Shown one piece after another: positions 17,958-43,690 of a DNA stretch of 64,000 bases. The notes under the pieces were generated by a model. It had not been told where the DNA came from, searched no databases, and was given only the letters and a program-made list of their open reading frames with translations. The first letter of the stretch is position 1; each line of letters opens with the position of its first letter. This DNA is from Candidatus Omnitrophota bacterium (GTDB taxonomy: Bacteria; Omnitrophota; Gorgyraeia; Gygaellales; Profunditerraquicolaceae), in NCBI GenBank assembly GCA_028712175.1, contig JAQTQQ010000004.1, positions 2,180-66,179 of the forward strand. The letters run 5' to 3'. Made by a program: the position numbers and the translations under genes.

Positions 17958-18074
17958 TAGCTATTAGCTCGTAGCTATTAGCTCTTAGAAAAACATTGTT
18001 TACAGCAAAATAAGGTTAAAAGGCTAAACAGAAAACACTTGGTTTCTAGCTCTTAGCTCATAGCTAAGAGCTAA
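17958..18074. repeat. Modular intergenic palindromic repeat, copy A (heptad arm, core1, core2, inverted heptad arm)
   Basis: Left arm TAGCTAT/TAGCTCG/TAGCTAT/TAGCTCT heptads, then core1 aaaaacattgtttacagcaaaataagg, core2 aaggctaaacagaaaacacttggtttc, and a palindromic right arm agctcttagctcatagctaagagct. Copy B at 18265-18430 has a near-identical layout. Confidence 0.7.
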
Positions 18075-18264
18075 ATCCCATCAACAGTACAAACGCTGCT
18101 AATATTGCTAATATTGCAATAATGAATACAATCTTATGCTTCGGGTATCGCAACCTGCCCATGAAACCAACACTACGATTTAAGCTCTCTCCGCAGAAAA
18201 TGCAAAACAACGCCTCATCATCATATATCGGCTGTTTGCAATGGGGACATGTGTATGCGCTCAT
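18064..18264 (-). CDS. Small zinc-ribbon membrane protein (CPHC...CIFC plus C-terminal TM helix)
   Basis: 66 aa with two CxxC pairs and a hydrophobic C-terminus. There is no clear SD. The stop and last codons lie inside repeat arm R1, and the start abuts repeat copy B. Confidence 0.45.
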   Translation of the reverse strand: MSAYTCPHCKQPIYDDEALFCIFCGESLNRSVGFMGRLRYPKHKIVFIIAILAILAAFVLLMGFSS

Positions 18265-18430
18265 ATTAGCTCTTAGCTCTTAGAAAAACATTGTTTACAG
18301 CAAAATAAGGGTCGCTAGACTATAGTCGATGGTCGATAAAATCTGGCCTCCATAAATTCATGCACAAAAGGCTAAGGCAGAAAACACTCGGTTTCTAGCT
18401 TTTAGCTCATAGCTACGAGCTAAGAGCTAA
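18265..18430. repeat. Modular intergenic palindromic repeat, copy B (as copy A, plus an inserted GACTATAGTC palindrome module)
   Basis: core1 is identical to copy A (27/27) and core2 is about 90% identical. The insert is gtcgctagactatagtcgatggtcgataaaatc, carrying the perfect 10-bp palindrome GACTATAGTC. The right arm is agcttttagctcatagctacgagctaagagct. Confidence 0.7.
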
Positions 18431-18442
18431 TTATATTCTATC

Positions 18443-18470
18443 TTGACAATGCCTGAATTTCAAGTATACT
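18443..18470 (+). promoter_or_regulatory. Sigma70-type promoter TTGACA-16nt-TATACT for rpmB
   Basis: -35 TTGACA at 18443-18448 and -10 TATACT at 18465-18470. It is followed by the SD GAAGGAG and the ATG at 18499. Confidence 0.6.
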
Positions 18471-18498
18471 TATTAAACTTAAATGAAGGAGAAATCAA

Positions 18499-18753
18499 AT
18501 GTTAAAAGAATGCGTAATCTGCAAAAAAGGTGCACTTCAAGGGAAAGTATTATCCAGAAAGGGCCAATATAAAGCTAAAGGCGGTACAGGTTCAAAGATT
18601 GCCCGCTGGAGCAAGCGTAAATTTCTGCCTAATCTACAAAAGGTAAATATGGTGGTCGAGGGAACTTCCAAGAGGGTCTTTATCTGCGCCAAATGCATTA
18701 AAAAAGGCGATTTCAAAAAAGCAGTCCCCAGAAAACCTAGACCCACTACTTAA
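18499..18753 (+). CDS. rpmB: 50S ribosomal protein L28 (Zn-ribbon C+ form)
   Basis: 84 aa matching the L28 pattern CxICxKG ... RxFxPNLQ ... CAKCxKxG. Has a strong SD. Confidence 0.85.
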   Translation: MLKECVICKKGALQGKVLSRKGQYKAKGGTGSKIARWSKRKFLPNLQKVNMVVEGTSKRVFICAKCIKKGDFKKAVPRKPRPTT

Positions 18754-20434
18754 AAAATATATCTTTGGCCTCAAGGATTATTGATTCTTCCCTGCGCCAG
18801 CTGTCTATTTTTGGCGTATAAATAAGATCAAAAAATTCTGCCTGCAGCAGGCTCTCTCTTAAACCACTCATACCAAAAGCAATAACCTGCCAAGTAGTAG
18901 CTCCATCGGTTGCCCAAAACTTTAGTGTCCCGCGATTTAAAAGCTGTATTTCTCCTTTTAGCTTTAAAGAACGCGTATAAAATAAAGGTTCGGGATTTTC
19001 CATGCCAAACGGTTCTAAAAGCTCTAATTCTTTAACCAAACCTTCATTTAATTCGGCAAAACTAATTTCCAAATCAATATCCTTACTGGGGAGCAAATCC
19101 TCCAAAGTTAATCTGTCGCTGGCCAGCCTGTTGATACTCTTCCTAAAATCATCAATATTATCTTTGGTAATTAATAAACCTGCGGCATGAGCGTGGCCTC
19201 CAAAACTGTTTAAGAGCTCCTTACAATCGAGAAGTGCATTAAAAAGATGGAAATTCTTAATTGAACGCGCCGAACCCTTGCATAACTCTTCACTTAAAGA
19301 GATCACTATTGCCGGACGGTAAAATCTGTCGGCAAGTTTAGAGGCAACAATGCCTAAAACACCCTGATGCCAATCTTCTTTGGCAATTACAATTACTTTA
19401 TGGTCTTTAAAATTAACCTGTGCGTTAATCAATTGTTCCGCTTCTTCTAAAATCTTGCCTTCGATCTTCTGGCGCTGGCGATTTAGCTGTTCTAATTCTC
19501 TGGATAAATTTTGCGCCTCTGCCTCACTCCGGCTCATCAATAATTTTAATGACACCTCAGCGCTAGAGATCCTGCCGGCTGCATTCAAGCGGGGGGCAAT
19601 AATAAAACTTACATAAGTAGAATTAAACTTCTTATTTTCAATGCCTGCATTTTCAATTATAGCGCGCAGACCCCATCTTTTGGTTTCCGGCAGCCTCAAC
19701 AAACCTTCTTTGGCGATAATCCGGTTTTCACCGGTTAAAGGCACACTATCTGCGATTGTACCTAAAGTTACCAAATCCAGATCATCGGGCAACAAAGAAC
19801 CTGACAGGCCTTGAGCAAATTTATAAGCCACCCCCACCCCGGCTAACTCCCTGTAAGGATAAGTTGAATGTTTTACTTTTGGATTAATAATACAGGATGC
19901 CCCTGGCAAATTTGAATTCTGCGGCTCATGATGATCCGTAATAATCACGTCAATATTTGCCCGTCTTAAAGCCTCTATCTCTTTATGGTTGGTTATACCG
20001 CAGTCAGCAGTAACCATAAGCTTAACATGGTTTTTCACAGCAAAATCAACAATATCTTGATTTAACCCGTAACCTTCGGTAATCCTATGGGGGATATGGT
20101 GTAGAACAACTAAACCTATCGCCTCAAGCCTATTTTTAAGCAAAACTGTACTAGTAATCCCATCCACATCATAGTCTCCAAAAACCATTACTTTTTCATT
20201 ATTAGCCTCTGCCTTTTTAACCAAGCTGATTGCCTTAGGCATATCCGTGAATAGGTGCGGGCTAAATAAATCTGCGATTGAAGGTTTTAGAAACTTTTCT
20301 GCTTGAGCTGCGGTAATTATCTTGCGGTTAATCAAGATCTGGGCCAGTATTTTTGAAATACCTAATTCTTTTGCAAATTGATTCTGCAGGGAAACATGCG
20401 GGGCGGCTATTCGTAAGATTGTGTGACTGGACAT
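18746..20434 (-). CDS. recJ: Single-stranded-DNA-specific exonuclease RecJ
   Basis: 562 aa with DHH motifs (DYDVDGITS, ITDHHEP) and a DHHA1 domain. Confidence 0.9.
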   Translation of the reverse strand: MSSHTILRIAAPHVSLQNQFAKELGISKILAQILINRKIITAAQAEKFLKPSIADLFSPHLFTDMPKAISLVKKAEANNEKVMVFGDYDVDGITSTVLLKNRLEAIGLVVLHHIPHRITEGYGLNQDIVDFAVKNHVKLMVTADCGITNHKEIEALRRANIDVIITDHHEPQNSNLPGASCIINPKVKHSTYPYRELAGVGVAYKFAQGLSGSLLPDDLDLVTLGTIADSVPLTGENRIIAKEGLLRLPETKRWGLRAIIENAGIENKKFNSTYVSFIIAPRLNAAGRISSAEVSLKLLMSRSEAEAQNLSRELEQLNRQRQKIEGKILEEAEQLINAQVNFKDHKVIVIAKEDWHQGVLGIVASKLADRFYRPAIVISLSEELCKGSARSIKNFHLFNALLDCKELLNSFGGHAHAAGLLITKDNIDDFRKSINRLASDRLTLEDLLPSKDIDLEISFAELNEGLVKELELLEPFGMENPEPLFYTRSLKLKGEIQLLNRGTLKFWATDGATTWQVIAFGMSGLRESLLQAEFFDLIYTPKIDSWRREESIILEAKDIFFK

Positions 20435-22075
20435 TTACATCTTCTCAGGTTGGGCTATCCCTAACAACTCTAATCCGCAGGATAAAACAATTTTTGTACC
20501 TGTAATCAAGGCAACCCGGGCGCAAGTTAAAACATCACTCTGACCCAAAACACGGTGCAGATCATAAAACTTATGGAAACTTTCTGAAAGTTCCTGTAGA
20601 TATACCGTAAGCATGTAGGGATCGCAAGTAACCAAGCAAATATTAAGGACTGCCTCAAATTCAAGCATTTTCTTAATAAGGCCCAGCTCTTCTTTTTCTT
20701 TAAGCACAGAAAGGTCTAAACCTTCCATGCCTGCGGCAGGCGGACTGCTGCGTAATATACTGCAAATACGCGCATGCGCATACTGCACATAATATACGGG
20801 ATTTTCGGCACTCTGTTTTTTGGCTACTTCAAGGTCAAAATCCAAGTGGCTTGAAGTGCGGCGCATCAAAAAGAAAAACCTTGCGGCATCTTTTCCCACC
20901 TCATCTAAAACTTCCCGTAAAGTTATATACTGGCCGCGCCGGGTAGACATTTGCACTTCTTGGCCGTAGCGAAAAATAGTAGCTAATTGGACAATAACTA
21001 CGGACAAATCATCCTTATTATGCCCAAATGCCTCAATCGAAGCTTTAATACGGTTAATATACCCATGATGATCCGGGCCCCAAAGATTAATCAGCCAGCT
21101 GTAACCACGATCAAACTTGTCCTGATGATAAGCAATATCCGGAGCCAGGTATGTCTGACTTCCATCGCTCTTAATAATCACCCGGTCTTTATCGTCGCCA
21201 AATACGGTTGATTTAAACCAAAGCGCCCCATCCTGTTCATATAAGAATTCTTTTTGCTTTAATTGCTCAAATGCTTTCTCAACCTTGCCACTTTTAGCCA
21301 GCGCTTTTTGTGAATACCAACAATCAAATTTAACCCCAAAATCATCCAGCTCCTGTTTAATAATTTTAAGGATGTACCCGGAAGCAAAATCACCCAAATC
21401 TTCTTCTTTGATTCCCTTAGCTTGCGCTTCCTGGGCAATGTCTTTGATATAATCGCCCTGATAATAGTTCTCAGGAAACTCTGTCGTTTCACCTTGTAAT
21501 TCTTTAAGCCTAAGCTGGACTGACTTACCTAAAATATTTATCTGGTTACCCTCATCGTTTAAATAATATTCGCGCGAAACCTGAAAATTTAGAAAATCCA
21601 AGATACTGGCAAGACAATCACCAACCGCTGCCTGACGGGCATGGGCAACCGACAAAGAACCGGTAGGGTTAGCGCTGACAAATTCAATTAGAACCTTCCT
21701 GGTACCTCCTAAATCCGCCTTTAATGCCTCTTTGCCTACTGCAATTATCTTACGCAGTTTCTCATAAAAATAATCCTCTTTAAGATAAAAATTTATAAAA
21801 CCTGCCCCCTCTACTTTTACTTTAGTAACCAATTCTTTTAATCCTGTCTTAGCTATTTCCTTCTGGATAAACTCAACTAACCGGCTAGCAATGACCCTAG
21901 GCTGCTGTTTTAACTCTTTACTTAATTTTAAGGCAATATTAGTGGTAAAATCACCAAAACGCTTATCCGTAGGAAGATCCATTAAAATCGCTTCTTGGCC
22001 ATCCTTAAGGTAGCCTAAGTGCCTAAGAGCTGCGCCCACTAAATCAATAAGCTCTTTTGTAATATCGTTCGTCAT
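20435..22075 (-). CDS. argS: Arginyl-tRNA synthetase
   Basis: 546 aa with a class I ArgRS catalytic core and a DALR anticodon-binding domain. Confidence 0.92.
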   Translation of the reverse strand: MTNDITKELIDLVGAALRHLGYLKDGQEAILMDLPTDKRFGDFTTNIALKLSKELKQQPRVIASRLVEFIQKEIAKTGLKELVTKVKVEGAGFINFYLKEDYFYEKLRKIIAVGKEALKADLGGTRKVLIEFVSANPTGSLSVAHARQAAVGDCLASILDFLNFQVSREYYLNDEGNQINILGKSVQLRLKELQGETTEFPENYYQGDYIKDIAQEAQAKGIKEEDLGDFASGYILKIIKQELDDFGVKFDCWYSQKALAKSGKVEKAFEQLKQKEFLYEQDGALWFKSTVFGDDKDRVIIKSDGSQTYLAPDIAYHQDKFDRGYSWLINLWGPDHHGYINRIKASIEAFGHNKDDLSVVIVQLATIFRYGQEVQMSTRRGQYITLREVLDEVGKDAARFFFLMRRTSSHLDFDLEVAKKQSAENPVYYVQYAHARICSILRSSPPAAGMEGLDLSVLKEKEELGLIKKMLEFEAVLNICLVTCDPYMLTVYLQELSESFHKFYDLHRVLGQSDVLTCARVALITGTKIVLSCGLELLGIAQPEKM

Positions 22076-22114
22076 TTTAAAGTTTTAAGAAACGGTTGGT
22101 GCAGATTGGGTAAG

Positions 22115-22471
22115 CTATTTTTTAGGAGTTCCCACTCTTACTCTTTTAGCATCGGACCAGAGCCCCTCTAAAGAATAAAACTCTCTCACAGGTTTATAAA
22201 ACGAATGGGCTATCACAGAAACATAATCAAGGGCTATCCACCCTGATTCGTCGTTCGGAGAAACCTTAGAGAGAGATTTTATTTTTTTTATTTCAAGGTC
22301 ATCCTTGATCGCCTGAGCTATCGCAGTAGCCTGCCTTAAAGAATTACCGCTTGCAATAACAAAATAATCGCAAAACCCGGCAACCTTGGAAACATCGAGA
22401 ATAACAACCTGCTCGGCTTTTTTAGACTTAGCAACCCAAGCAATGCGTTGCGCTAAAGTTTTCGAGTCTAT
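22115..22471 (-). CDS. rsfS: Ribosomal silencing factor RsfS (Iojap family). Has no ATG/GTG/TTG start, so an AUA start is proposed.
   Basis: The reverse translation reads IDSKTLAQRIAWVAKSKKAEQVVILDV...SGWIALDY...SLEGLW, a full-length RsfS with no Met anywhere. AGGAG sits 6 nt upstream of ATA, and an in-frame stop lies immediately upstream. Confidence 0.7.
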   Translation of the reverse strand: MDSKTLAQRIAWVAKSKKAEQVVILDVSKVAGFCDYFVIASGNSLRQATAIAQAIKDDLEIKKIKSLSKVSPNDESGWIALDYVSVIAHSFYKPVREFYSLEGLWSDAKRVRVGTPKK

Positions 22472-22498
22472 TTTCTACTCCTATCTAAAGAAGACCGT

Positions 22499-22648
22499 TT
22501 ATTTCTTTCCTAAGATCTTATACATTCCGGTTCCGCATTCCGGACACTTGCCTTTCATTGCCGCGCGGCCATTTTTCATAGTAACTTTCTGTTCATCCTT
22601 CATAGATTTCTTACCTTTACATTTTACGCAATATCCTGTTTCTGCCAT
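22499..22648 (-). CDS. 49-aa zinc-ribbon microprotein (CxxC...CxxC), conserved-hypothetical type
   Basis: MAETGYCVKCKGKKSMKDEQKVTMKNGRAAMKGKCPECGTGMYKILGKK. GGAGG lies 6 nt upstream of the ATG. It is missing from the ORF track because it is under 60 aa. Confidence 0.6.
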   Translation of the reverse strand: MAETGYCVKCKGKKSMKDEQKVTMKNGRAAMKGKCPECGTGMYKILGKK

Positions 22649-22723
22649 TTGATTCCTCCTTTTTATACCACAAGATCGTTCTGATTATAAATAATTTTAA
22701 CACAGGTTAATTTCGATGTCAAT

Positions 22724-23728
22724 TTATTTGCTCATGCATTTTCTCGCAGAGTATTTTTCTTCTATCTCCCCGACAATTTCTTCAATCAGGTCCTCCAGTG
22801 TCACCAGGCCCAAGGCCTTTCTGTCTCTGTCTACGACAATAGCTATCTGCATTTTCTCCGCCTGGAATCTTTTTAGAAGGTCATTTACCCGCGTTGAGCT
22901 AGAAACAAAACAGGCATCATGAAGAAGGTCCTGCAACAAAAACAGGCTTTTTTCGCGTAATATGTAAAGCAGGTCCTGGGCATAGACTATCCCTACAATA
23001 TTATCCTTATTGCCCTTATAAACCGGAAGACGGGCATGGCCCTCCTCAACAAATATATTTAAAAGATTATCCGAATTAGTATTTATATCAACGGCAACGA
23101 TCTTTTCCTTAGGCACCATTATCTCCAATAGCTGGGTATCGCCAAATTCAAAGATGCGGTGGAGCATCATGCGCTGGTCCTCGCTTAAAAACCCCTCCTG
23201 CTGGCCAAGCTCAATCATTATTTTTAATTCTTCTTCTGTAATTAAGGGCGACTTCTTAGAAACGCTTAAACCAAAAATTCTTAAAATAAAATTGCTAATC
23301 CCGATAAGAAATATATTCAAAGGTTTAAAAATCACAAGGGCCAACCGCATCAGCGGAGCGGTAATAAGGACCATCTTTTCCGTATGCTTAGAGGCGAGTA
23401 TCTTGGGGGTTATTTCGCAGAAAATAAGCAAAACCATTGTAATTACAAACGTAGAGATAATAACCCCCCATTTATAACCGTAAATCTGGACGAAAATACC
23501 GGTTACAATCGATGAGATGGCTATATTCGTAAGATTGTTTCCGATCAATATGGCAGCGATTACTTTATCCAGCTTAGTTACCAATCGCTGTACGCCGTGG
23601 GCGCCCTTGACCCCTTTTTGCAGCATATGGTGCAACCGAACCTTGCTCAAACCGATTATCGATGTCTCTGAGGCTGAGAAAAGGAAAGACAAGACCAGAA
23701 GAATCAGTAAAATCAACAATAATAACAT
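22724..23728 (-). CDS. DUF21-CBS pair membrane protein (CNNM/TlyC/CorC hemolysin-like family)
   Basis: An N-terminal 4-TM DUF21 domain followed by a tandem CBS pair. Confidence 0.75.
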   Translation of the reverse strand: MLLLLILLILLVLSFLFSASETSIIGLSKVRLHHMLQKGVKGAHGVQRLVTKLDKVIAAILIGNNLTNIAISSIVTGIFVQIYGYKWGVIISTFVITMVLLIFCEITPKILASKHTEKMVLITAPLMRLALVIFKPLNIFLIGISNFILRIFGLSVSKKSPLITEEELKIMIELGQQEGFLSEDQRMMLHRIFEFGDTQLLEIMVPKEKIVAVDINTNSDNLLNIFVEEGHARLPVYKGNKDNIVGIVYAQDLLYILREKSLFLLQDLLHDACFVSSSTRVNDLLKRFQAEKMQIAIVVDRDRKALGLVTLEDLIEEIVGEIEEKYSARKCMSK

Positions 23729-23730
23729 TT

Positions 23731-24999
23731 TTATCCTAAATTAAGTTTCTCATAGATACTTCCTTCAAGCTTACCAAGCGGGCCGATTAAAGCCAGATTA
23801 ATCGCTTTATTATTAAATAATCCGGCGGCAACCTGACGTATATCCTCCAAACTTACCTTGTTAACTTCTTTAATAACCTGCTGAAGAGTATATACTTTAT
23901 CTAAGCAGGCAACGCTCTCGCCCATCCAAAGCATATACTCCATGGTATCCTCTAAAGCTAAAGCCAGTTGGCCCAGATAAAATTCTTTTGCGCGCCTGAA
24001 TTCATCAATGGGCAGGAGAGCTTTTTTAGTCTTACCCAATTCCCTAAATATCAAACTTAAAGCATCTTCTACTTTAGAATTATCGATCCCCGCGTGCACA
24101 AGAAAAGCCCCGGTATCGGTAAAACGCTTAAGAGCGGAACCAATCTCATAAGCTAAGCCTCTTTTCTCCCTGACTTCATTAAAAAGCCTGCTGGACATAT
24201 TTGCGCCCAAGATTATATGCAATATTGACTGCGCATGCCTTAAAGGGTGATCCCGCTTTAAGGCATGAAAACCCAAAGCCATATGCGTCTGTTCGGTTTC
24301 CTTATGGAAGATTTTTAACTGCGGCCTATCTTGGTTTTCCCTTACCGGGGTAAATTCATTAAATTTAGCTTCTTTCTGTAATGAAAAAATGGAGGAAGCA
24401 TTTTTAACCAAGAGATCATGGTCAACCAAGCCTGCTGCGCTAATTACGATATTAGGGGCGGTGTAATGCCTGGACTGGTAATTTTTCAAACTTTGGCGGT
24501 TAATCTTCGTTACCGAATCAACCGTGCCGATTATCGGAGCACCCAGGGCCTGTTTTGGCCAAAGCAGTTCATCCAGCAGCTCATAAACATAGCTCTGCGG
24601 GAGATCTCTATACATCTTAAGCTCTTCTAAGATAACCGTTCTTTCTTTATCAATATCCGCCTGCTTGAGACATGGATACGCTACTATATCGGACAAAATA
24701 TCCAAAGAAGATGCTAAATACCGTTTGGGGATTTTAACCAGGTAACAGGTCAGTTCTTCGGAAGTAAAACCATTTAATGAGCCTCCGACCCCTTCAATTA
24801 ATTCCTTTATAGCACGGCAGGAATATTTCGCACTGCCCTTAAAAAGAAGATGCTCTAAAAAATGCGAGATCCCCTTCTGGTCAGCTGTTTCGTAACGTCC
24901 GCCAATCTTAATCCATATCCCCAAAGATGCTGATTGCACGCCGCTATTACGTTTTGAAACTATTCTTAAGCCGTTACTTAATTTGGTCTTTTTATACAT
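23731..24999 (-). CDS. M16-family zinc peptidase (pitrilysin-like)
   Basis: Inverted zincin motif HxxEH (SHFLEHLLFKGS). The start was set at the internal ATG (MYKKTKL), which has an AGGAG SD, and it overlaps the trpA stop by 8 nt. Confidence 0.8.
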   Translation of the reverse strand: MYKKTKLSNGLRIVSKRNSGVQSASLGIWIKIGGRYETADQKGISHFLEHLLFKGSAKYSCRAIKELIEGVGGSLNGFTSEELTCYLVKIPKRYLASSLDILSDIVAYPCLKQADIDKERTVILEELKMYRDLPQSYVYELLDELLWPKQALGAPIIGTVDSVTKINRQSLKNYQSRHYTAPNIVISAAGLVDHDLLVKNASSIFSLQKEAKFNEFTPVRENQDRPQLKIFHKETEQTHMALGFHALKRDHPLRHAQSILHIILGANMSSRLFNEVREKRGLAYEIGSALKRFTDTGAFLVHAGIDNSKVEDALSLIFRELGKTKKALLPIDEFRRAKEFYLGQLALALEDTMEYMLWMGESVACLDKVYTLQQVIKEVNKVSLEDIRQVAAGLFNNKAINLALIGPLGKLEGSIYEKLNLG

Positions 25000-27547: not shown

Positions 27548-27550
27548 CTT

Positions 27551-27680
27551 TGGCCAAAGGTCGAAAGACTAAAGTCTAAAAATTCATCTCTAGCCTAGGC
27601 TTTGTGCGCCCTTTTAGGCTTGCAACTTTAGTCTTTAAATTATACATGGTTTTCTACGATTCACGAACTAAGAACTAATT
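27551..27680. repeat. Modular intergenic palindromic repeat, copy D (long imperfect hairpin plus CGAACTA heptads abutting the trpC stop)
   Basis: Contains ggtcgaaagactaaagtc. The 11-bp inverted repeat aagactaaagt (27565-27575) / actttagtctt (27625-27635) flanks the ctagcctagg palindrome. The heptads cgattca/cgaacta/agaacta end exactly at the trpC stop codon. Confidence 0.65.
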
Positions 27681-30041: not shown

Positions 30042-30060
30042 TTAAATCTCCCCAAAGAAT

Positions 30061-30150
30061 GGCCGATAGACTATGGACCATAGTCGATAAAACCAGTTCC
30101 TAACTCTTGACTCGCAGCCCGTAGGAAAACCTACGAACTAAGAACTTATT
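30061..30150. repeat. Modular intergenic palindromic repeat, copy C (GACTATGG-a-CCATAGTC module, hairpin, and CGAACTA heptads abutting the murA stop)
   Basis: ggccgatagactatggaccatagtcgataaaacc is a homolog of the copy B insert. It is followed by the cgtaggaaaacctacg hairpin and the heptads acgaact/aagaact, which end at the murA stop codon. Confidence 0.65.
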
Positions 30151-31408: not shown

Positions 31409-31409
31409 A

Positions 31410-33303: not shown

Positions 33304-33507
33304 TTACTTATTTTTCCCATATTTCTTCATGAACTTATCCACGCGTCCGGCAGAATCTACCAACTTCTGCTTTCCGGTAAAAAACGGATGGCATTTCGAA
33401 CAAATTTCAACGCGGATACTTGGCTTAGTCGACCGGGTATGCACTGTCTCACCGCAAGCGCAGACAATCGTGCTCTCTTTGTAATTAGGATGAACTTTGT
33501 CTTTCAT
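33304..33507 (-). CDS. rpmE: 50S ribosomal protein L31 (Zn-ribbon C+ form)
   Basis: MKDKVHPNY...CxCG...CSKCHPF. The start was set at the ATG that has AAGGAG 8 nt upstream. The ORF track's GTG at 33516 would add only 3 aa. Confidence 0.85.
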
Positions 33508-33525
33508 TTTACTCACTCCTTTTTA

Positions 33526-35381: not shown

Positions 35382-36747
35382 ATAGTTTAATATATTTACC
35401 GGCAGAAATACTCCAGGAGAAATTACAATTCATGGCATTGGTCATAAGGCAAGCCCATTTGGCCTTATTTTTAAAAACTAACAGGGCATGGTCAAGGGCC
35501 CTCAATAGCCCATCTTTGGAATAATCGGAGAAAAGAAAACCGTTTTTCGCATTTATAGTATCATTCAGGCCTCCGGTCTTAAAAACCAGAGGTATAGTGC
35601 CGTAACGCAAACTTATTAATTGCCCGAGCCCGCAAGGCTCATATTTGGACGGCATAAGAAAAATATCGCTTCCGGCATAGATCTTGTGCGCCAGAGGATC
35701 GTCAAACTTTAAATTTAAAGAAATAACCCCGGGGTATTTCTCGGATGCGTTTTTTAGAATCTGATGGTATTTTAAATCTCCAGTCCCTAAAATGACCAAC
35801 TGCAATCCCATCTTGCAAAGCTTGCTTAGGGCTTCAGCAAGAACATCAAAACCCTTCTGCTCGGCTAAGCGCGAAACGATACCTAAAACAGGGATATCTT
35901 TATTCAACGGCAACCCGCACCTTTTTTGTAAATCCTCTTTATTAAAAACCTTGCTTTCTAAAGTCTCCGCGGAAAAATTCTGAATAATAAATTTATCCAC
36001 CATAGGATCCCAAACAGAATAATCCAGCCCGTTTAGTATTCCACTTAAAACCTCTTTTCGCTCCCTTAAAAGGCCGTCTAAACCAAAACCAAAATCCTTG
36101 GTCTGTATCTCTTTGGCATAAGTAGGGCTTACGGTGTTAATAAAATCTGAAAAGATTATCCCGCCTTTAAGCAGATTAACCTTACCGTAGAATTCAAGAC
36201 CGTTAATACCGAATAAATCCCAGCTAAGACCAAGCTTGGCAAATTTTTCCTTCTCAAAAATACCCTGGTATCCGGTATTATGGATAGTCAAAACACATTT
36301 CATTCTGCTGTAAAAACCTTTAGCCGCATAGATGTTCTTTAAATAAACGGGAATGAGGCTTGCCTGCCAGTCATGCAGGTGCAGAATATCGGCAGGATAA
36401 TTGATTTCTTTCAATAGGTCAAGGGCCCTGCGGCAAAAAAATGAAAATCGTTCCAAGTTATCTTTGTAATCTCCATTCTTATCCCCGTATAAACCATCAC
36501 GGGCAAAATATGAGCTGTTTTCTATAAAATAGACCTTGAGATCCTTTCCGATAACTGAAAACGATATATCTTCAGAAACCCTGTTAATCTTAAATTTGGA
36601 ATCCGTGACACATTTATAGCGCGGCATAATAACAATTACCTCTTGGCCGCAATATTGAAGCGCTAAAGGCAGAGCGCCAACCACATCCGCAAGCCCTCCT
36701 GTTTTTGCAAAAGGCAAGACTTCAGAAGCCAGCACAGCTATCTTCAT
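35359..36747 (-). CDS. glgA: Glycogen synthase (ADP-glucose type, GT5)
   Basis: MKIAVLASEVLPFAKTGGLADVV..., the KTGGL motif typical of GlgA. Confidence 0.9.
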   Translation of the reverse strand: MKIAVLASEVLPFAKTGGLADVVGALPLALQYCGQEVIVIMPRYKCVTDSKFKINRVSEDISFSVIGKDLKVYFIENSSYFARDGLYGDKNGDYKDNLERFSFFCRRALDLLKEINYPADILHLHDWQASLIPVYLKNIYAAKGFYSRMKCVLTIHNTGYQGIFEKEKFAKLGLSWDLFGINGLEFYGKVNLLKGGIIFSDFINTVSPTYAKEIQTKDFGFGLDGLLRERKEVLSGILNGLDYSVWDPMVDKFIIQNFSAETLESKVFNKEDLQKRCGLPLNKDIPVLGIVSRLAEQKGFDVLAEALSKLCKMGLQLVILGTGDLKYHQILKNASEKYPGVISLNLKFDDPLAHKIYAGSDIFLMPSKYEPCGLGQLISLRYGTIPLVFKTGGLNDTINAKNGFLFSDYSKDGLLRALDHALLVFKNKAKWACLMTNAMNCNFSWSISAGKYIKLYAKARAR

Positions 36748-39302
36748 TGTCCAACCTCCTTAGGAGTTAAACTTGACATCTTAAGCCAATTAGGGCCTTT
36801 TTTTATATCTATCTTTATCGGGACATCAAACTTTACAACATTCTCCATTCTGTCTTTTACCAAAGAACAGAGCACATTCAATTCATCCGATGGTAAATCA
36901 AAAACCAGCTCATCATGGATCTGTAAAATCATTTTAGCTTTTAAGCCTTTTATCTTAATCCCTGCGGATATATTAATCATCGCCAATTTAATCAAATCGC
37001 TGGCTGTGCCCTGAATGGGAGTATTTACCGCCTGACGCTCGGCAAATTGCCTAATTCCAATATTTTTATTATTAATCTCCGGGATATACCTTCTCCTTCC
37101 CAGGAGAGTAGTAACAAAACCTTGCTCTTGGGCCTTTTTAATCTGCGAATCGATATATTCTTTTACCTTGGGGTAACGCAGGAAATATGCATCGATAAAA
37201 TCCTGGGCTTGATTTACAGAAATACCCAAATCTTTGCTTAAACCGTATGCGCTCTGGCCGTAAATAATCCCGAAATTTACCCTTTTAGCTACTTCGCGCA
37301 TATCATCATTAACCTCTCTCTCGGTAATATTATAAATTAAAGAAGCGGTCAAGCGGTGCACATCCTGATCAAGGCTAAACGCTTTAACCAGCGTATTATC
37401 CCCTGATAAATGCGCAAGCACCCTTAATTCTATTTGAGAATAATCGCAGGACAATAGACAGCTATCCTTGTCCGATGCAATAATCGCCTGCCTAATTTTA
37501 CTGCCGATATCGGTTTTAACGGGAATATTCTGCAGATTAGGATTACTTGAGCTAAGCCGGCCTGTTTCGGTTCCCGTCTGGTTGAAAGATGTATGCACTC
37601 TTTGGGTCTTCTGGTCCGCTAATTTAGGCAAAGCATCGACATAAGTATTCTTTAATTTGGTCAGCTGCCTGTATTCCAATAAAAAAGCGGGGAGCGCATG
37701 CCTATCCTGCAGGCGCTTTAATACTTCTTCATCCGTAGATGGGCCGGTCTTAGTCTTCTTAATTACAGGCAACTTAAGCTTTTCGAATAAAACACTCCCT
37801 AGCTGTTTCGGAGAATTGATATTAAACTGCGTATCGGCTGCTTCATAAATATCCGAAACTAATTTTATTAACCTCTTTTCTATCTCGCCCGAAAGCTCTT
37901 TAAGAAAAACCAAATCCAGTTTTATTCCGTCGATCTCCATCTGAGCCAATATGCTAACCAAAGGCATCTCAAGCTCGGTAAATAATTTAATTAGCCCCTT
38001 TTCCAGCAAGGCTGCATTTAATACGGGTTTTAATTTAAGCACAAGGGCCAAGGTATCCAAGGTGTTCAATGAACCTTCCCGGATAAAATCGCCTAAGTTC
38101 TCCAATGCCAGATCCACAGGCGAATAACTTGCCCGCGATGGATTTAATAAATAGGCTGCGATCATAGTATCAAAATCCGCACCATTTAATTCCAGGCCTT
38201 CCTTAAAAAGCAAAACCTTTAATTTCTTAAGGTCGTGTCCGGTTTTCTTTATTTTTTCATCAGCGATAACAGTTTTTATGCATTCTTTGGCGGATTGAGC
38301 ATTAAAGATTTTACCTTCGATCGCAAAATAAAGTTCATTAACACCCGAACCGAAAATAGCGATCTCTTCAGCATGATTCATTAAATTTTTCAACTCCGTT
38401 TGGCTGCAATAAAACAAATTGGCCTTAATATCTTTATCATCTGAAGTACCAAGATCGCCTAATAGCTTTTTAAATTCTAACCTTTTAAATATCTTTGATA
38501 ACCCCGCTATATCCGGCGTGCCAACCTTAGCCTCTTTCAAATTAAGCTCTATCCCTACTTCTTGATTTAGGCTGATAAGCTCTTTGTTCAATCTTATCCG
38601 CTCAAGATTATCGGATATCGACTCTCTTATTCTCTCAGGTACAACCTTTGCGATATTTTCCATTAATTTTTCCAAAGAGCCGAATTCAATGATAAGCTTT
38701 TTCGCTGTTTTATCTCCTATGCCGGGCACTCCCGGAATATTATCCGCATCATCACCCATAAGAGCAATAATGTCCGGCACCCTTTCAGGAGAAACCCCAA
38801 AATACTCCCTAACTTTATCTAAATCGTAAAGCGTGCCCTCGTCCTTATAGGGATTAAAAACCGAGACATATTTATCCACTAATTGCAGAATATCTTTATC
38901 GCTGCTTACTATTGTCACGGGGATCTTTTTTTTAGCGCCAGACCTGGAAAGCTGGGCGATTATATCATCAGCCTCAAAACCGGGCTTCTCGAAAATAGGT
39001 ATACCGTAGGCAGAAATAATCTCCTTAATTATAGGAATCTGGCTAACCAGACCGTCGGGCATGGCGCGCCTTTGCATCTTATATTGCGCAAGCTTTTCCT
39101 GCCGGAACGTCTTTCGCGAAACATCAAAACAACAGGCCAGATAATCCGGTTTTTTCTCTTTTAATATCTTATTAAGGATGTTGACAAACCCGTAGACCGC
39201 GTTTGTCTCCTGCCCACGGGATGTCCTTAAATCCTTTAAAGCATAGTAAGCCCGATAGCAAAATGCATTCGCGTCAATAAGGAATAAACTTTTCTCAGCC
39301 AT
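36744..39302 (-). CDS. polA: DNA polymerase I
   Basis: 852 aa with a 5'-3' exonuclease domain, an exonuclease-like middle domain, and a family A polymerase domain. Confidence 0.95.
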   Translation of the reverse strand: MAEKSLFLIDANAFCYRAYYALKDLRTSRGQETNAVYGFVNILNKILKEKKPDYLACCFDVSRKTFRQEKLAQYKMQRRAMPDGLVSQIPIIKEIISAYGIPIFEKPGFEADDIIAQLSRSGAKKKIPVTIVSSDKDILQLVDKYVSVFNPYKDEGTLYDLDKVREYFGVSPERVPDIIALMGDDADNIPGVPGIGDKTAKKLIIEFGSLEKLMENIAKVVPERIRESISDNLERIRLNKELISLNQEVGIELNLKEAKVGTPDIAGLSKIFKRLEFKKLLGDLGTSDDKDIKANLFYCSQTELKNLMNHAEEIAIFGSGVNELYFAIEGKIFNAQSAKECIKTVIADEKIKKTGHDLKKLKVLLFKEGLELNGADFDTMIAAYLLNPSRASYSPVDLALENLGDFIREGSLNTLDTLALVLKLKPVLNAALLEKGLIKLFTELEMPLVSILAQMEIDGIKLDLVFLKELSGEIEKRLIKLVSDIYEAADTQFNINSPKQLGSVLFEKLKLPVIKKTKTGPSTDEEVLKRLQDRHALPAFLLEYRQLTKLKNTYVDALPKLADQKTQRVHTSFNQTGTETGRLSSSNPNLQNIPVKTDIGSKIRQAIIASDKDSCLLSCDYSQIELRVLAHLSGDNTLVKAFSLDQDVHRLTASLIYNITEREVNDDMREVAKRVNFGIIYGQSAYGLSKDLGISVNQAQDFIDAYFLRYPKVKEYIDSQIKKAQEQGFVTTLLGRRRYIPEINNKNIGIRQFAERQAVNTPIQGTASDLIKLAMINISAGIKIKGLKAKMILQIHDELVFDLPSDELNVLCSLVKDRMENVVKFDVPIKIDIKKGPNWLKMSSLTPKEVGQ

Positions 39303-39355
39303 TAATCAACTATAAAAGGAATTCAATATAAGGAAAGATATTTTGCGGTACGCTT

Positions 39356-40114
39356 CTATCGCGACAAAGCTCTCAACCCTGCCTTTTCAATGAATGCTTC
39401 GATCTCTTCATTGTCTGGCTCCAGCTGCTGTGCATCCAGAGCCAGCTTAATTGCCAAAGCAAGATCCCCATCATTAAAACTTTGCCTGGCTTTCTTGAAA
39501 TAATCGCGGGCCTGCTCCTTATCTTCTTTGAACGTGGATTTTCTTACTGTAACATCTTCCATAAGATCGAGGACTTCTTCTTCTCGCTGATCAGCAAATA
39601 CGCTATCGCTTAGGACTGAACGGATATCTTTCAGCCGATTAGCTGCCTTCAGCGCCCAAGGATCATCCGGAGAACCTAAAGCTGACCTTTTAGCCCAATA
39701 AAACTCTGCTTTCTTTAAATTACGCTTATTTTCATAAAAAAATGCCAGGTTAGTATAGGCACTTAAATAAGCGGGGTCTATTTTTATCGCCCTTAAATAA
39801 TTCTCTTCAGCCTTATCAAGATCTCCTTGGGCTTCGTAAATAACCCCCAAATCATTATAAGCAACGGCATAATTAGGGTCTAAAGCAACTGCCTTCTGAT
39901 ACCACCCCTTGGCTTCGGATAAATTACCAATAGCTTGATGCCTAGCCCCTTCTTCTCTGTATTTATGGGCTTGCGATTCTAAAGTATAGGGATGGTCTTC
40001 AGCCGCTTTAGGCTTAACAGGAGCCCCTTTGGCAAAGAGCGAATCCGCAAAACAGAAAACGCATAATATTGTAGCTATGATAATTAAGTATTTGGGCAGG
40101 ATATCTCTATTCAT
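39356..40114 (-). CDS. Secreted TPR-repeat protein
   Basis: A signal peptide / N-terminal TM segment followed by multiple TPR units. Confidence 0.7.
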   Translation of the reverse strand: MNRDILPKYLIIIATILCVFCFADSLFAKGAPVKPKAAEDHPYTLESQAHKYREEGARHQAIGNLSEAKGWYQKAVALDPNYAVAYNDLGVIYEAQGDLDKAEENYLRAIKIDPAYLSAYTNLAFFYENKRNLKKAEFYWAKRSALGSPDDPWALKAANRLKDIRSVLSDSVFADQREEEVLDLMEDVTVRKSTFKEDKEQARDYFKKARQSFNDGDLALAIKLALDAQQLEPDNEEIEAFIEKAGLRALSR

Positions 40115-40124
40115 TTATGAAAAT

Positions 40125-40153
40125 ATTATACACATTTAAAACATAGACGTCAA
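40125..40153 (-). promoter_or_regulatory. Sigma70-type promoter TTGACG-17nt-TATAAT, near-leaderless
   Basis: On the minus strand, TTGACG (40153-40148), a 17-nt spacer, then TATAAT (40130-40125). The ATG is 10 nt after the -10. Confidence 0.55.
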
Positions 40154-40159
40154 GAAAAA

Positions 40160-42721
40160 TTAAATAATCGGATCCATGGTCAATGCCGGATGGGCCACTT
40201 TATGCAAAAAGACTAAAAGCTCTTCGGAGCTTGTCGCAACCGCCTCATCGGCAATCTTATCCAATAAGTCCGGCTGATTAATTTCGTTTGCCCTTTCCTT
40301 TAGCTTATCGCCTAAAATGTTTTTTAATTCTTTAGGCATCCAGACGACCCTGGCCAACCCGCCTTCAGCTGAAATAAATTTCCTGCTTAAAATATATAAT
40401 TTGCCCACCCCTAAAAATCCGGGCGTCTGCACGCCCCCCCCGACTGAACCGGCTAAAGTAGTAAAGCTCATTCCTGAAGGAGTCATGCCGGAATAATCCC
40501 GATGCACTATCATTACCCCGTTAGCTTCAGGGATAATCGCCACTATGCATTCAAAGCATCCGCAGGAAGACTGCGGCCCGTCCATCATCGAATAGATACT
40601 GACTGCCTCAATAGTATGATTGGATTTCTGCTCAACAAACTCGTTTACATTATCCCATTGGCCGAGCCTTGCATCCAAAAGATTTCCTTTGAGAACAGGC
40701 TGATTCGGCCCGGTAGGCGTAATTTCAAAAGAAGCCTTGGCGTCAAGCCAGGAATATGCACCACATAACCCTAAACGCTCCGGAGTAACAATACAAACAT
40801 GATTCGGCGCAAAAGACTGACAGAGCAGGCAAGAATAAAAAGTATCCACGCTTTCATCAGTCATTCCGGCAATCCTCTCATCACGCTCATTATATGCTTT
40901 TTGCGCAGCCAGCGAAAGCTTCTGGACATCCTCTTGGTTCGTATAAAGCTTAACCTGAATTTTATCCACAATAGCGCTATATTCCTGATGCAACATAGCA
41001 TGCAAAATTACCCCTAGATGCCTAAGCCGAAAACCTTTATTAAAAGCATCTTTTGAAATCCGAATCCAAACCATATCGCGTTGCCCCATATGCATAAGCC
41101 CCATTGCATAATTTATAAAACGATGGATCTGGCGCTCTAATATCGGTTCAAAATCTCTTTGCATTTTGCGCCCAAAAACACTGACCATAATTGCCAAAGG
41201 CAGTGATTTAGCATCTTGGCTTAATTGATCTATATCACGGCCGATTAATTCCACTCTTCCGTCGCTAACATTTGCCTCATCCTCAATGGACAAAAGTTCG
41301 ACAGCCGCGCTTGCCTTGCCTCCGAACTCAACAGCCAGCTGCTCCTTACGCACACGCTCACCTTCAAATGCTGCGGCATAAGGCACAGGGACTGCAACTT
41401 CAGAGATCTTAGCTTTAATTCCCCGCGTCAGGATACACTTAGAAGGAAGCTTCTCGTAATCTTTTTCCGTAACCAAAGCTTCAAATAATGTGGTATCTAT
41501 TTTAGCTAACTGCGGAAGATCTAAATCGGAGATTATTGGCAGTCCAAAAGCAAGGGCGCCTAAACCGGTCGCTACCAAAAGCTCATCAACATGGCTAAGC
41601 AGGAGCACAAACGCAGGCACCCGGTCGCGGACATAATCCGCAGCCTTTTCCCATTGACCCGGCTTAATCCCTCCGTAAATCAATGGCGCGCGTACTGCAA
41701 AATTTATGGCGTAAATAGCAGAAAGATAATCATCGCCTAAAGGAACAATATAATTTTCTAACCCTATCCCTATACCCTTATTTTCAAGTTGCTGCCTAAA
41801 ACTTCTGTCACCCGCACTTCCTGCCAGCAGACTGACAATGCCCTTAGACTGAAAACTACGGATGAGATACAGGGCCGTTTTTTCATCTTTAGCCGGGCCC
41901 AAAATTACAGCAATCCCGGATATCCTGCCGTCAACTAATTGCAGGCCGAGTGAACGCAGAATTTTATCCGGAAGAAAACCCAGCCCTTCTTTAGGGTGCT
42001 GGTGATTTAATACCGCTAACGCGGCTAAGATCTCCTCGCAAATCAAAGTGCCAATACCTTTATTTAGCATGCCGGCTAAAGAATTAACCGTAAGCCCGCC
42101 GGAAGCTGCCTTATTATTAACTAAACCTTCAGCTTGATAAAAAACATCCGAGCAATCTTTAAGTGTTTTTACTTCAACATTCAGAAGCGCATTAATTAAA
42201 GGCAGGTAATAATTTGTTTCGCCAAATTCAATCTTGGCACTTTCGCCATTTTGGGCTATTGCGCTATCCAAAGCTTGCCGCGTAAAGAGCAATGCGCTAT
42301 CGGCGCCCTTTGTCCCAAGCTCTATTAATAATTTATCCAAACCTTCGCTCACAGTTTTCTTTTTAAGGTTACCGGCTATTTCTTTATCAATAAAAATAAC
42401 CAGGCAGGCGCCGATGGCCTTACCATCCTTTAATTTAACCGCCTCTGCCCTGCCTTCGCCGACAATCTCCTTGATCTGACTATTGATAACTTCAATATCT
42501 TCGGGCAATTCTGCGGTAATTTGGTCTTTGATTAAAAGCTTAAGGCCGACTTTGTATTTTTCATGAATTAATCTAGCTAAGTCAATTGCTGACTCCGCCG
42601 GACCCTCAATACAAACAGTATCATTGATAAGATAATCCTCTAACTTTTTAAAATCATCATCGGAACTTATTAAAATTACCCCTTTTTTCCTGGCCCCGGG
42701 TATCTGCGGTAAATTCCCCAT
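40160..42721 (-). CDS. acsB: Acetyl-CoA synthase (CODH/ACS A-cluster subunit AcsB/CdhC-type) with a roughly 110-aa N-terminal extension
   Basis: A-cluster ligand pattern CxxCx8Cx9C followed by the bridging C-G-C (SSCGCFE). Similarity to Moorella-type AcsB runs along the full length. Confidence 0.85.
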   Translation of the reverse strand: MGNLPQIPGARKKGVILISSDDDFKKLEDYLINDTVCIEGPAESAIDLARLIHEKYKVGLKLLIKDQITAELPEDIEVINSQIKEIVGEGRAEAVKLKDGKAIGACLVIFIDKEIAGNLKKKTVSEGLDKLLIELGTKGADSALLFTRQALDSAIAQNGESAKIEFGETNYYLPLINALLNVEVKTLKDCSDVFYQAEGLVNNKAASGGLTVNSLAGMLNKGIGTLICEEILAALAVLNHQHPKEGLGFLPDKILRSLGLQLVDGRISGIAVILGPAKDEKTALYLIRSFQSKGIVSLLAGSAGDRSFRQQLENKGIGIGLENYIVPLGDDYLSAIYAINFAVRAPLIYGGIKPGQWEKAADYVRDRVPAFVLLLSHVDELLVATGLGALAFGLPIISDLDLPQLAKIDTTLFEALVTEKDYEKLPSKCILTRGIKAKISEVAVPVPYAAAFEGERVRKEQLAVEFGGKASAAVELLSIEDEANVSDGRVELIGRDIDQLSQDAKSLPLAIMVSVFGRKMQRDFEPILERQIHRFINYAMGLMHMGQRDMVWIRISKDAFNKGFRLRHLGVILHAMLHQEYSAIVDKIQVKLYTNQEDVQKLSLAAQKAYNERDERIAGMTDESVDTFYSCLLCQSFAPNHVCIVTPERLGLCGAYSWLDAKASFEITPTGPNQPVLKGNLLDARLGQWDNVNEFVEQKSNHTIEAVSIYSMMDGPQSSCGCFECIVAIIPEANGVMIVHRDYSGMTPSGMSFTTLAGSVGGGVQTPGFLGVGKLYILSRKFISAEGGLARVVWMPKELKNILGDKLKERANEINQPDLLDKIADEAVATSSEELLVFLHKVAHPALTMDPII

Positions 42722-43591
42722 TTATAACCCGCTTGCCTCTAGAACCGCAGGCACCAGTTTATTCCAGCCGATTGGCATAATATGAACCCCTTGGCAATAA
42801 GGTTTTAATTTCTTAATCAAAGAGCTGGCAATTTCTATAGAAGTAGCTGCCTTATCCTTACTCTCCTGCATTTCTTTAATTAAATTATCCGGGACAAAAA
42901 TTCCTGCTACATTTTTATTCATAAAATTAGCCATAGCCGAAGATTTTAATAAAACAATACCTGCTATAACCGGAATTTTAATATGCTTAATCTTAGAAAT
43001 AAAATTATCAAAAATTTTTTCGTCAAAAATAGCCTGTGTTTGAAAAAATTCAGCCCCTGCGGCTATTTTTTTCTCCATTTTCATAATCTGAGGTTCCAGC
43101 GGCTCTGAATTAGGATTGACTACTGCGCCAAGGCAGAATTTAGGGAATATGCCCGCCAATTTATTTCCGTTCATGTCCTGGCCGGTTTCTAGTTTTCTGG
43201 CAACTTGGAGTAACTGAACCGAGTCCAAATCGAAAACCGGTTTTGCCTGCGGATGGTCTCCTTTAATCGGATGGTCGCCGGTAGTAATCAATATATTTTC
43301 CAATCCTAATGCGGCGGCAGAAAGCAAATCTGACTGCAGGGCAAGCCGGTTGCGGTCACGGCAGGTAAGCTGATAAATCGATTCAAAACCTTTTTGCTTA
43401 AGCAGATAACTCACCGCCAAAGACCCTAAACGCATTACTGAACTTTGTAAATCCGTAACGTTAATCGCATCTACTTTTGCGCGAATAAGCTCAGCCTCAT
43501 CCAGTAATTTCTTTACTTCGATCCCCTTATCCGGGCCGCTCTCCGAAGTAATTATAAATTTCCCTGACTGTATTTTTTCTTTAAATATCAT
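42722..43591 (-). CDS. metF: 5,10-methylenetetrahydrofolate reductase
   Basis: 289 aa MTHFR TIM barrel, adjacent to acsB. Confidence 0.8.
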   Translation of the reverse strand: MIFKEKIQSGKFIITSESGPDKGIEVKKLLDEAELIRAKVDAINVTDLQSSVMRLGSLAVSYLLKQKGFESIYQLTCRDRNRLALQSDLLSAAALGLENILITTGDHPIKGDHPQAKPVFDLDSVQLLQVARKLETGQDMNGNKLAGIFPKFCLGAVVNPNSEPLEPQIMKMEKKIAAGAEFFQTQAIFDEKIFDNFISKIKHIKIPVIAGIVLLKSSAMANFMNKNVAGIFVPDNLIKEMQESKDKAATSIEIASSLIKKLKPYCQGVHIMPIGWNKLVPAVLEASGL

Positions 43592-43605
43592 GTTTTCTTA
43601 GATTA

Positions 43606-43690
43606 AGGGTTGATAACCTATGGGCGATGGCCGAGAAAACCGAAGGTTTTATGAACTTTGCCTATAGTCTTTCGACCAATAAATTATTCC
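43606..43690. repeat. Modular intergenic palindromic repeat, copy E (inverted orientation)
   Basis: The reverse complement ggtcgaaagactatagg matches the copy B/C/D modules. There is also an aaaacc-gaa-ggtttt hairpin at 43636-43650. Confidence 0.55.

Follow-up and report, generated by a model that had tools for sequence, protein, structure and literature searches.

Heptanucleotide-armed palindromic repeat elements at gene junctions of a Candidatus Omnitrophota genome

Introduction

Neighbouring genes in the 64-kb stretch of Candidatus Omnitrophota DNA analysed here (the window, 64,000 nt in full) are nearly always separated by 60 nt or less, and only a handful of junctions carry longer spacers. 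What fills these junctions, how did it come to be there and does it serve the host? A preliminary description of the window assigned the filling to one modular repeat family with at least five copies (A–E), likened both to REP (repetitive extragenic palindromic) elements and to MITEs (miniature inverted-repeat transposable elements). We find that A–E are indeed members of one modular, dispersed repeat family. The evidence presented below leads us to favour, with moderate confidence, a genus-level family of mosaic palindromic DNA elements, similar to REPs and BIMEs (bacterial interspersed mosaic elements) and built from short degenerate 7-nt repeat arrays.

Two kinds of repeat are thereby brought together. 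Heptanucleotide repeats have been known in cyanobacteria since 1990, their origin and role being unexplained, and REP and BIME elements are explained only where a RAYT (REP-associated tyrosine transposase) gene exists.

Long spacers and their heptad periodicity

A greedy layout of open reading frames (ORFs) bears out the earlier statement that intergenic space in the window is mostly below 60 bp. Spacers of more than 100 nt are found at 3010-3279, 17934-18498, 22076-22723, 27548-27678, 30042-30145 and 43592-43777. The first corresponds to a flavin mononucleotide (FMN) riboswitch identified by an Rfam match, the second holds copies A and B, and the last three hold C, D and E. The spacer at 22076-22723, formerly listed as the single exception to the rule that long spacers carry the repeat, is occupied by a DUF5679 gene and an RsfS-like ORF; all truly non-coding long spacers except the riboswitch therefore carry repeats.

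Copies A and B share 44 nt at 98% identity and another 46 nt at 93%. The extra ~56 nt of B aligns to D (79% of 39 nt) and to E (74%), so that B is, as proposed earlier, an A-like element with an added unit that is also present in D and E. A 26-nt degenerate pattern, TTTTNTCGRCYATNGNCYATAGKYTA, has exact matches in B, D and E (0.01 expected by chance), and a 16-nt pattern, AGYTCTTAGYTCGTRR, is exact in B, C and D, with eight sites at no more than two mismatches versus 0.36 expected.

Every module is also periodic with a period of seven, a feature missed in the preliminary description. The autocorrelation at lag 7 is 0.36–0.47 in each of A–E over the whole length, the value for other lags and the baseline being about 0.25; the pooled lag-7 signal gives z=9.1 for A–E and z=6.2 for C, D and E only. 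Control spacers of the window have a lag-7 value of 0.27 and no periodicity. A sliding lag-7 scan over the whole window recovers A–D plus one extra peak at 232-483, which was rejected as a sixth copy because it is due to CGAAAGC repeated by chance within a PHP-domain gene. That the likeness of the spacers is a mere low-complexity coincidence has a probability that we regard as practically nil: it is contradicted by the shuffle controls and by the extra copies in the same genome and in relatives (see below), and nothing was left in its favour after testing.

Structure of copies A–E

Read in gene orientation (minus strand), the copies are composed of two types of unit. Type 1 is formed by two to four TTAGYTC heptads followed by TAGAAAACCAT, a boundary that can be written degenerately as TAG(A/G)AAACCAT. 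Type 2a reads TTTT-ATCGACC-ATCGACT-ATAGTCT-ATCGACC, and type 2b, a T-rich variant of type 2, reads TTTTTAGAC-TTTAGTC-TTTCGAC. A unit of either type can stand alone as a single arm or be paired with an inverted second arm across a short loop, and mosaics and nesting occur. The modules listed in the preliminary description are thus genuinely shared, but as separate entities they reduce to these two REP-like units: the CGAACTA heptads are merely the reverse strand of TTAGTTC, and 'core1' and 'core2' are the loop-proximal parts of the two inverted type-1 units that form the arms of copy A.

Copy A (17958..18075, minus strand) is a type-1 doublet located between the stop of a small ORF and the start of a UvrD/PD-(D/E)XK helicase gene. 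In gene orientation, its 5' unit corresponds to plus-strand positions 18030-18075 and its 3' unit to 17958-18000; the TAG stop codon of the small ORF (18064-18066) falls within its heptads. Copy B (18266..18430, minus strand) has a type-1 doublet like that of A, with arms at 18380-18430 and 18266-18293; a type-2a arm (18301-18344) is nested in the loop of this doublet. The copy begins just 3' of the −10 box of a TTGAAA-17-TAGAAT promoter, about where transcription from this conserved promoter is expected to start, and thus constitutes the 5' untranslated region (UTR) of the small ORF. This promoter (minus strand) overlaps a divergent one for L28 (TTGACA-16-TATACT, plus strand) at 18435..18470; the pair is conserved across the phylum and sets the position of B relative to the transcription start. 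In several relatives the helicase start codon lies 8-15 nt from the −10 box of the TTGAAA-17-TAGAAT promoter, which suggests that the helicase mRNA is leaderless in these cases.

The small ORF itself (18064..18264, minus strand, 66 aa) encodes a zinc ribbon, with weak Pfam zinc-ribbon hits, and one transmembrane helix. It is flanked by B upstream and A downstream and is not part of the repeat. In relatives its slot is missing or otherwise filled, and the ORF may have arrived together with the repeat. Other fillings of the recJ/L28-uvrD slot, compared in loci L005-L058, are a small helix-turn-helix-like ORF (L005), heptad hairpins (L016, L026) and palindromes (L027, L031).

Copy C (27548..27678, minus strand) occupies the trpC/trpF junction and consists of a type-1 singlet and a type-2b doublet. 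The singlet (27645-27678), TTAGTTC TTAGTTC GTGAATC GTAGAAAACCATG, abuts the trpC stop codon, and the arms of the inverted type-2b pair (TTTTTAGAC TTTAGTC TTTCGAC) lie at about 27611-27639 and 27551-27584. Copy D (30042..30148, minus strand), at the aroA/trpG junction, combines a type-1 singlet (30120-30148) with a type-2a arm (30061-30094); the TAA stop of aroA is part of its first heptad, and the type-2a arm is followed by a new GGGGAG ribosome-binding site for trpG. Copy E (43592..43777, minus strand), between folD and the MTHFR gene, is a degenerate type-1 singlet with a type-2a doublet: degenerate heptads are followed by the type-1 boundary TATAGAAACCGG (plus strand 43697-43710) and by type-2a arms at 43645-43680 and 43600-43642. 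It extends to 43777, beyond the end at 43690 given earlier. The genes around copy E form a Wood–Ljungdahl-type run (40160-44620) with folD, MTHFR and the ACS/CODH beta subunit.

The heptads of lone type-1 arms adjoin a stop codon in 5/5 independent cases, which is no more than suggestive. Other regularities hinted at by hand-picked examples, selection for stops in all three frames or a tendency of the stop-rich arm to come first, were rejected after a systematic count (20/35 regions, no bias).

Copies outside the window

The window was matched via its TrpF protein to contig JAQUMO010000004.1 (94,690 bp) of assembly GCA_028718085.1, in which the record coordinate equals the window coordinate plus 393. 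Scanning metagenomes for the type-2a pattern yielded six loci. In one of them, L093, the encoded HisD has a rounded 100% identity to a protein of the source assembly; L093 and L096, a 21-kb contig of that assembly (JAQUMO010000002.1), agree at 99.975%. Three copies are found on L096: F, between hisD and hisB, a type-1 singlet with a type-2a arm inverted relative to that of D; G, between hisF and hisI, a type-2a doublet; and H, between hisI and trpE, a type-1 doublet. The ~85 kb of this genome covered by the window and L096 therefore contain eight members (A–H), arranged as singlets (C, D, F), doublets (A, E, G, H) and a nested element (B), with composites among them. The match between B and the L093 copy in the type-2a arm, counted by hand, amounts to 30/32 bases.

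The sister species represented by L095 and L098 (HisD 91-92% identical) have the same unit types, partly at the same junctions and partly at others, and the hisI-trpE copy of L098 has the architecture and much of the sequence of copy C, located in the window between trpC and trpF. Type-2a inverted pairs are also present in L090, where they precede an unrelated gene, and in L091, where two tRNA genes flank them. A type-1 profile search of 89 loci (1.36 Mb) gave matches only in the window, L096, L095 and L098, and the family is therefore clade-specific. The preliminary description had offered chance similarity as the conclusion to draw if copies were absent both outside the window and from relatives; F–H on L096 and the members in L095 and L098 dispose of this concern. 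Units of the family have been copied to many permissive sites: directly after stop codons in operons, in a 5' UTR and between tRNA genes.

Stability among strains and divergence among species

All eight elements are present in strains that are 99.4-99.97% identical, from four other samples (two to four strains per locus), and none of them has an insertion or deletion (indel). The ~1.85 kb of element sequence contains four substitutions between strains, which is not above the flanks. The arrays are thus not hypervariable and no recent insertion is seen; the comparison of copy number and insertion sites between strains that had been recommended earlier revealed no change.

Divergence between species gives a different view of the same sequences. 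Four-fold degenerate sites of L093 and L095 are 52.6% identical, whereas their hisD-hisB element reaches 71% over its whole length and 86% in the type-2 arm. This element is better conserved than four-fold sites, which indicates that its sequence is maintained, be it through function, through recognition or through conversion by other copies.

One contig of the same species (L086, from ENA) matches the window at 99.4% identity from trpF onward. The left end of this contig (L086:1-370, covering the 3' end of trpC and the 5' end of trpF) is strongly divergent and lacks copy C; the empty trpC-trpF junction reads TAA followed by TTGGCCAAGG, and the segment TTGGCCAA of this junction also follows copy C in the window. 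Either this left end is a recombinant allele, or the assembly has joined two co-occurring lineages into a chimera.

The same junctions in other Omnitrophota

The gene order prfA-prmC-aroA-trpGDCFBA-M16-CNNM-argS-recJ-(L28)-uvrD is kept in ~40 Omnitrophota loci. In most of these, including the nearest species (L005 and L006), aroA/trpG and trpC/trpF overlap (ATGA; −1 and −4). Among species with 89-92% HisD identity, a his junction may be filled, filled differently or empty, and the more distant L100 and L102 have empty his junctions of 10-17 nt or a different heptad hairpin. Related species thus differ in whether a given junction is occupied or empty.

In other lineages the same junctions carry hairpins whose arms are made of other 7-nt units, unrelated in sequence: AAGCGTA, CGTAATY/AATTACG, AATGACA, AGTAAYT, TAGCTCA, AAAAATC and AAGGGTC (x12.6). 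Some junctions carry other insertions, such as a GIY-YIG gene or a GTCATTGCGAGG-type palindrome. With cut-offs of at least 40 for the score and at least 2.8 copies, Tandem Repeats Finder detects 33 period-7 arrays in 0.96 Mb, against three or fewer for any other period. A strong lag-7 signal is present in 22/225 spacers of at least 60 nt, and 45/66 arrays lie outside long ORFs.

The arrays of one genome use the same unit at several sites, including in-frame sites in prmC and argS. In relatives, heptad arrays that keep the reading frame occupy two variable loops of PrmC and one region of ArgS; the prmC gene of the window has none. GGTCTAC is used at three sites in L027 (in-frame arrays at prmC 3690-3715 and 3903-3949 and argS 16257-16284) and GTCGTTG in L036 (2960-2986). 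Further in-frame arrays in essential genes of relatives are located at L022:3683-3923, L030:3487-3519, L020:4110-4141, L018:2942-2968, L011:7398-7421 and L016:14556-14585; in L022, TAT replaces TAG in the one unit where TAG would be in frame. Elements of this kind, made of other 7-nt units, are common throughout the phylum and occur even inside coding sequence.

These data bear on the possibility that the elements are long simple sequence repeats (LSSRs) arisen in place by replication slippage, with no copying between sites, the family being a by-product of a 7-nt mutational bias. Period 7 is strongly favoured in these genomes, as reported for many prokaryotes (PMC4679880, PMC4692102), and these papers attribute heptanucleotide repeats to polymerase slippage (PMC4679880, citing Mrazek 2007; PMC4692102). 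The units differ between lineages, and some arrays look local: AAGGGTC x12.6 in L048 merges into the start sequence of trpF. However, one unit recurs at unrelated sites within one genome, and non-orthologous copies of the present family have in common the non-repeat boundary motifs TAGAAAACCAT and TTTTATCGAC as well as whole composite architectures, which argues for copying rather than independent local slippage. Nor do the strains differ in copy number, and the conservation of the orthologous hisD-hisB copy exceeds that of synonymous sites. An origin by slippage in place is accordingly quite unlikely, and copying between sites is the best explanation of the shared boundaries and composites.

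Possible functions of the elements

Could the elements be functional cis-acting sites, as RNA or as targets of a protein? They might act as RNA hairpins that stabilize the mRNA upstream, uncouple translation or stall ribosomes at termination, as E. coli REPs do, or as arrays with UAG every 7 nt to which an oligomer of the HutP kind binds. Their positions would suit such roles: elements lie directly 3' of stop codons inside operons, with lone type-1 arms turning their heptads towards the stop, one element starts at a transcription start, and C and D belong to the aro/trp cluster. Folding predicts stable hairpins, and an orthologous copy is better conserved than synonymous sites. In the Bacillus hut leader, HutP-binding sites are three UAG triplets spaced by 4 nt; the sense strand of the type-1 unit likewise reads UAG-N4-UAG-N4-UAG, which we take to be the HutP recognition pattern.

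Other observations do not agree with these roles. C and D are absent from the nearest species, where the genes overlap; members are also located between tRNA genes and upstream of unrelated genes; and the type-2 arm is present in both orientations relative to genes. In contrast to HutP sites, the elements are scattered among unrelated genes and lie on both strands, sister species lack them, and there is no terminator to antagonize. No HutP- or TRAP-like gene is among the annotated genes of the window and L096. Regulation of trp genes by UAG arrays in the manner of HutP or TRAP was rejected on the grounds of the lack of C and D in the nearest species, of the occurrence of elements at unrelated loci and in both orientations, and of the units of other lineages, which lack UAG.

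Searches for RNA signals were equally negative. In Rfam 15, only the FMN riboswitch reaches the gathering score, and relaxed searches of the elements gave nothing better than E=0.8. A scan of A–E for intrinsic terminators (G+C-rich hairpin and U tract on the sense strand) found none on the minus strand. Internal promoters were rejected as well; only the conserved divergent pair beside B stands out, the rest being not beyond chance. Ordinary spacers favour folding of the sense strand (−2.06 kcal/mol; 771 vs 601 G-U pairs), whereas in heptadic spacers sense and antisense folding are nearly balanced (22 vs 16 regions, mean difference −0.44 kcal/mol, 146 vs 144 G-U pairs). Selection on RNA-level structure was rejected for want of any such asymmetry, and the symmetry therefore looks DNA-level. 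A cis-acting role as the basis of the family retains a minor but real probability, and the hairpins may or may not have a role for the host.

Origin of the elements

Under the interpretation that we favour, that of REP/BIME-like mosaic elements, one copy would give rise to another through duplicative insertion or ectopic recombination, with some enzyme as the driving force, and the copies would then drift through slippage in 7-nt steps. Insertion would split translationally coupled genes, after which the downstream gene would use a new ribosome-binding site. The persistence of the elements may reflect either tolerance or a mild usefulness of the hairpin. The same process, with other 7-nt units, would act across Omnitrophota and occasionally write in-frame arrays into protein loops.

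Several results weigh against this scenario. Among two to four strains at each of the eight loci there is no polymorphism in presence or copy number, and thus no sign of recent mobility or of active slippage. Conservation of the orthologous copy above synonymous sites fits function or protein recognition as well as selfish persistence. Within-genome copies are diverged (60-80%), except for the adjacent pair A/B. No transposase or RAYT is found among the annotated genes of 85 kb (the 64-kb window and the 21-kb L096), where the earlier suggestion of a cognate transposase was followed up; a tblastn search of 1.4 Mb of loci with an approximate E. coli RAYT sequence also gave no match, which is weak evidence. 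Comparison of filled and empty junctions reveals no target-site duplication beyond an ambiguous overlap of 2-3 nt, these junctions being too diverged to define sharp element ends. Finally, orientation relative to transcription is inseparable from orientation relative to replication because all flanking genes are co-oriented.

Some of these results also tell against classical MITEs, deletion derivatives of insertion sequences that are mobilized in trans and bounded by terminal inverted repeats and target-site duplications. As would be expected of MITEs, the elements are small, intergenic and dispersed, their arms form inverted repeats, and a given junction is filled or empty according to the species. 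But lone arms and mosaics are common, the arms are arrays of variable length rather than fixed termini, neither target-site duplication nor insertion polymorphism was found, and the 85 kb revealed no transposase matching a defined terminal inverted repeat. We consider this explanation very improbable, and the MITE label of the preliminary description is not supported.

A more far-reaching idea, which we regard as improbable, is that a dedicated sequence-specific activity writes or copies lineage-specific 7-nt arrays into permissive DNA, loops of essential proteins included, in Omnitrophota and perhaps in cyanobacteria, xanthomonads and Beggiatoaceae, with TAGAAAACCAT and TTTTATCGAC as its recognition sites. 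Such a writer might be a transposase of the HUH or tyrosine type that acts on heptad hairpins in single-stranded DNA, a template-copying polymerase or a reverse transcriptase. If true, this would explain why 7 is the favoured repeat length in prokaryotes.

Relation to known repeats

REP singlets, dimers, clusters and intragenic REPs have been described (PMC3733652). The present elements resemble REP, BIME and REPIN (REP doublets forming hairpins) sequences of Proteobacteria and other phyla in having short palindromic units that stand singly, as inverted dimers or in mosaic clusters; most lie between co-directional genes, downstream of a coding region, and a few are intragenic (PMC3733652). Species- or genus-specific families with long persistence at orthologous sites are a further likeness (PMC3733652; PMC3116915, RAREFAN preprint). 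With eight members in ~85 kb, the family occurs as dispersed extragenic singlets, inverted dimers and mosaics, and the REP/BIME-like part of the preliminary description has held up: it fits the lone arms, the inverted pairs, the mosaics and the location of elements immediately 3' of stop codons in operons.

The likeness does not extend to sequence. REPs in the sense of Di Nocera et al. 2013 are palindromes tagged with GTAG/CGTC, and no unpaired tag precedes a discrete stem of 6-13 bp with a short loop in the heptad family. GTAG is present inside several heptads (CGTAGCT, CGTAGG, CGTAGAAAACC), not as a tag; the stems are the heptad arrays themselves, degenerate and of variable length. No RAYT gene, the single-copy partner that REPINs have flanked by the repeats, was found among the annotated genes of the 85 kb. 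The copies of the family are diverged and do not make up a tight cloud of nearly identical sequences.

Among the long simple repeats of prokaryotes, those with a heptanucleotide unit are the commonest, and families based on GGGAATC (Xanthomonas), GGGGAYT (Nostoc) and TAACTGA (Beggiatoaceae) are known (PMC4679880, PMC4692102). Published families comprise tens to hundreds of sites per genome, some inverted and few inside ORFs, and their function and origin are unexplained (PMC4692102, PMC4679880). Like these repeats, including the cyanobacterial short tandemly repeated repetitive (STRR) sequences, the Omnitrophota arrays are over-represented, tandem, mostly intergenic and based on a genome-specific 7-nt unit in which some positions are fixed and others free (PMC4692102, PMC4679880). 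Unlike them, the arrays of the present family are short (two to five units), are joined to conserved non-repeat boundary motifs, mostly form hairpin arms and combine into mosaics of the two unit types. The length variation between close relatives that slippage would produce is not seen, as no indel was found in the eight elements.

Since REP-like singlets, doublets and mosaics here have arms made of heptad arrays with conserved boundary motifs, the family joins the REP-like and heptamer phenomena. A literature search found no paper describing such elements in Omnitrophota and, as far as we have searched, the phylum is new for heptanucleotide repeats.

Rickettsia palindromic elements (RPEs) are small palindromic repeats of 100-150 bp which can insert in frame at tolerant protein loops and have no heptad substructure. 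The in-frame heptad arrays of prmC and argS are comparable; they were seen in relatives only, none being found in the window.

Because the genome is compact and gene order is conserved across many metagenome-assembled genomes (MAGs), filled, differently filled and empty states of one junction can be compared directly. Omnitrophota are thus a good natural system for studying how such elements arise and spread, and also for asking how cells cope with split translationally coupled genes or with hits in essential proteins. For annotators, the elements are not genes or regulators to be named, and they mark likely breakpoints for MAG assembly.

Gene content of the window and other palindromes

TrpA-based relatives of the window are nearly all Candidatus Omnitrophota MAGs, and the best TrpA identity among the reference genomes scanned is 71%. 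The genes of the window are tightly packed, almost all on the minus strand, and their content is housekeeping: the rib operon with its FMN riboswitch, pnp, ftsK, the uvrD-like gene, recJ, argS, aroA-trpGDCFBA, prfA/prmC, rho, polA, acsB, folD/metF, tgt/queA, infB/nusA and others.

A second, unrelated palindromic repeat, GTCATTGCGAGG...CGAAGCAATC...CCTCGCAATGAC, is present in several Omnitrophota loci (the L027:19343 region, L036:7384-7505 and L090:8192-8450), and once as a 37-aa in-frame insertion in PrmC (L027, residues CVIARSEATKQS). A different hairpin family, GGGACGTTTC(C/T) with A and T runs on both sides, resembles a bidirectional terminator; its sites are window 49345-49440 (end of queA), L096:19347-19415 (after secDF) and the secDF-mfd spacers of L098 and L102. 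The 157-nt spacer at L090:5342-5498 forms a long hairpin from units of ~8 nt (GTTCGTGA on one side, CGCTAACT/CGCGAACT on the other), so that periods other than 7 also occur among the periodic hairpins of these genomes. At the trpC-trpF junction of L042 (1882-2184), a small GIY-YIG nuclease ORF is flanked by a 16-nt inverted repeat.

The RsfS-like ORF of the window (22115-22475, minus strand, ~119 codons, motif DYFVIASGNSLRQ) lies in a stretch left blank by the gene caller. Near its 5' end no ATG, GTG or TTG stands in frame, and GGAG lies 7 nt ahead of an ATA codon; the ORF may have a non-canonical start or be a pseudogene.

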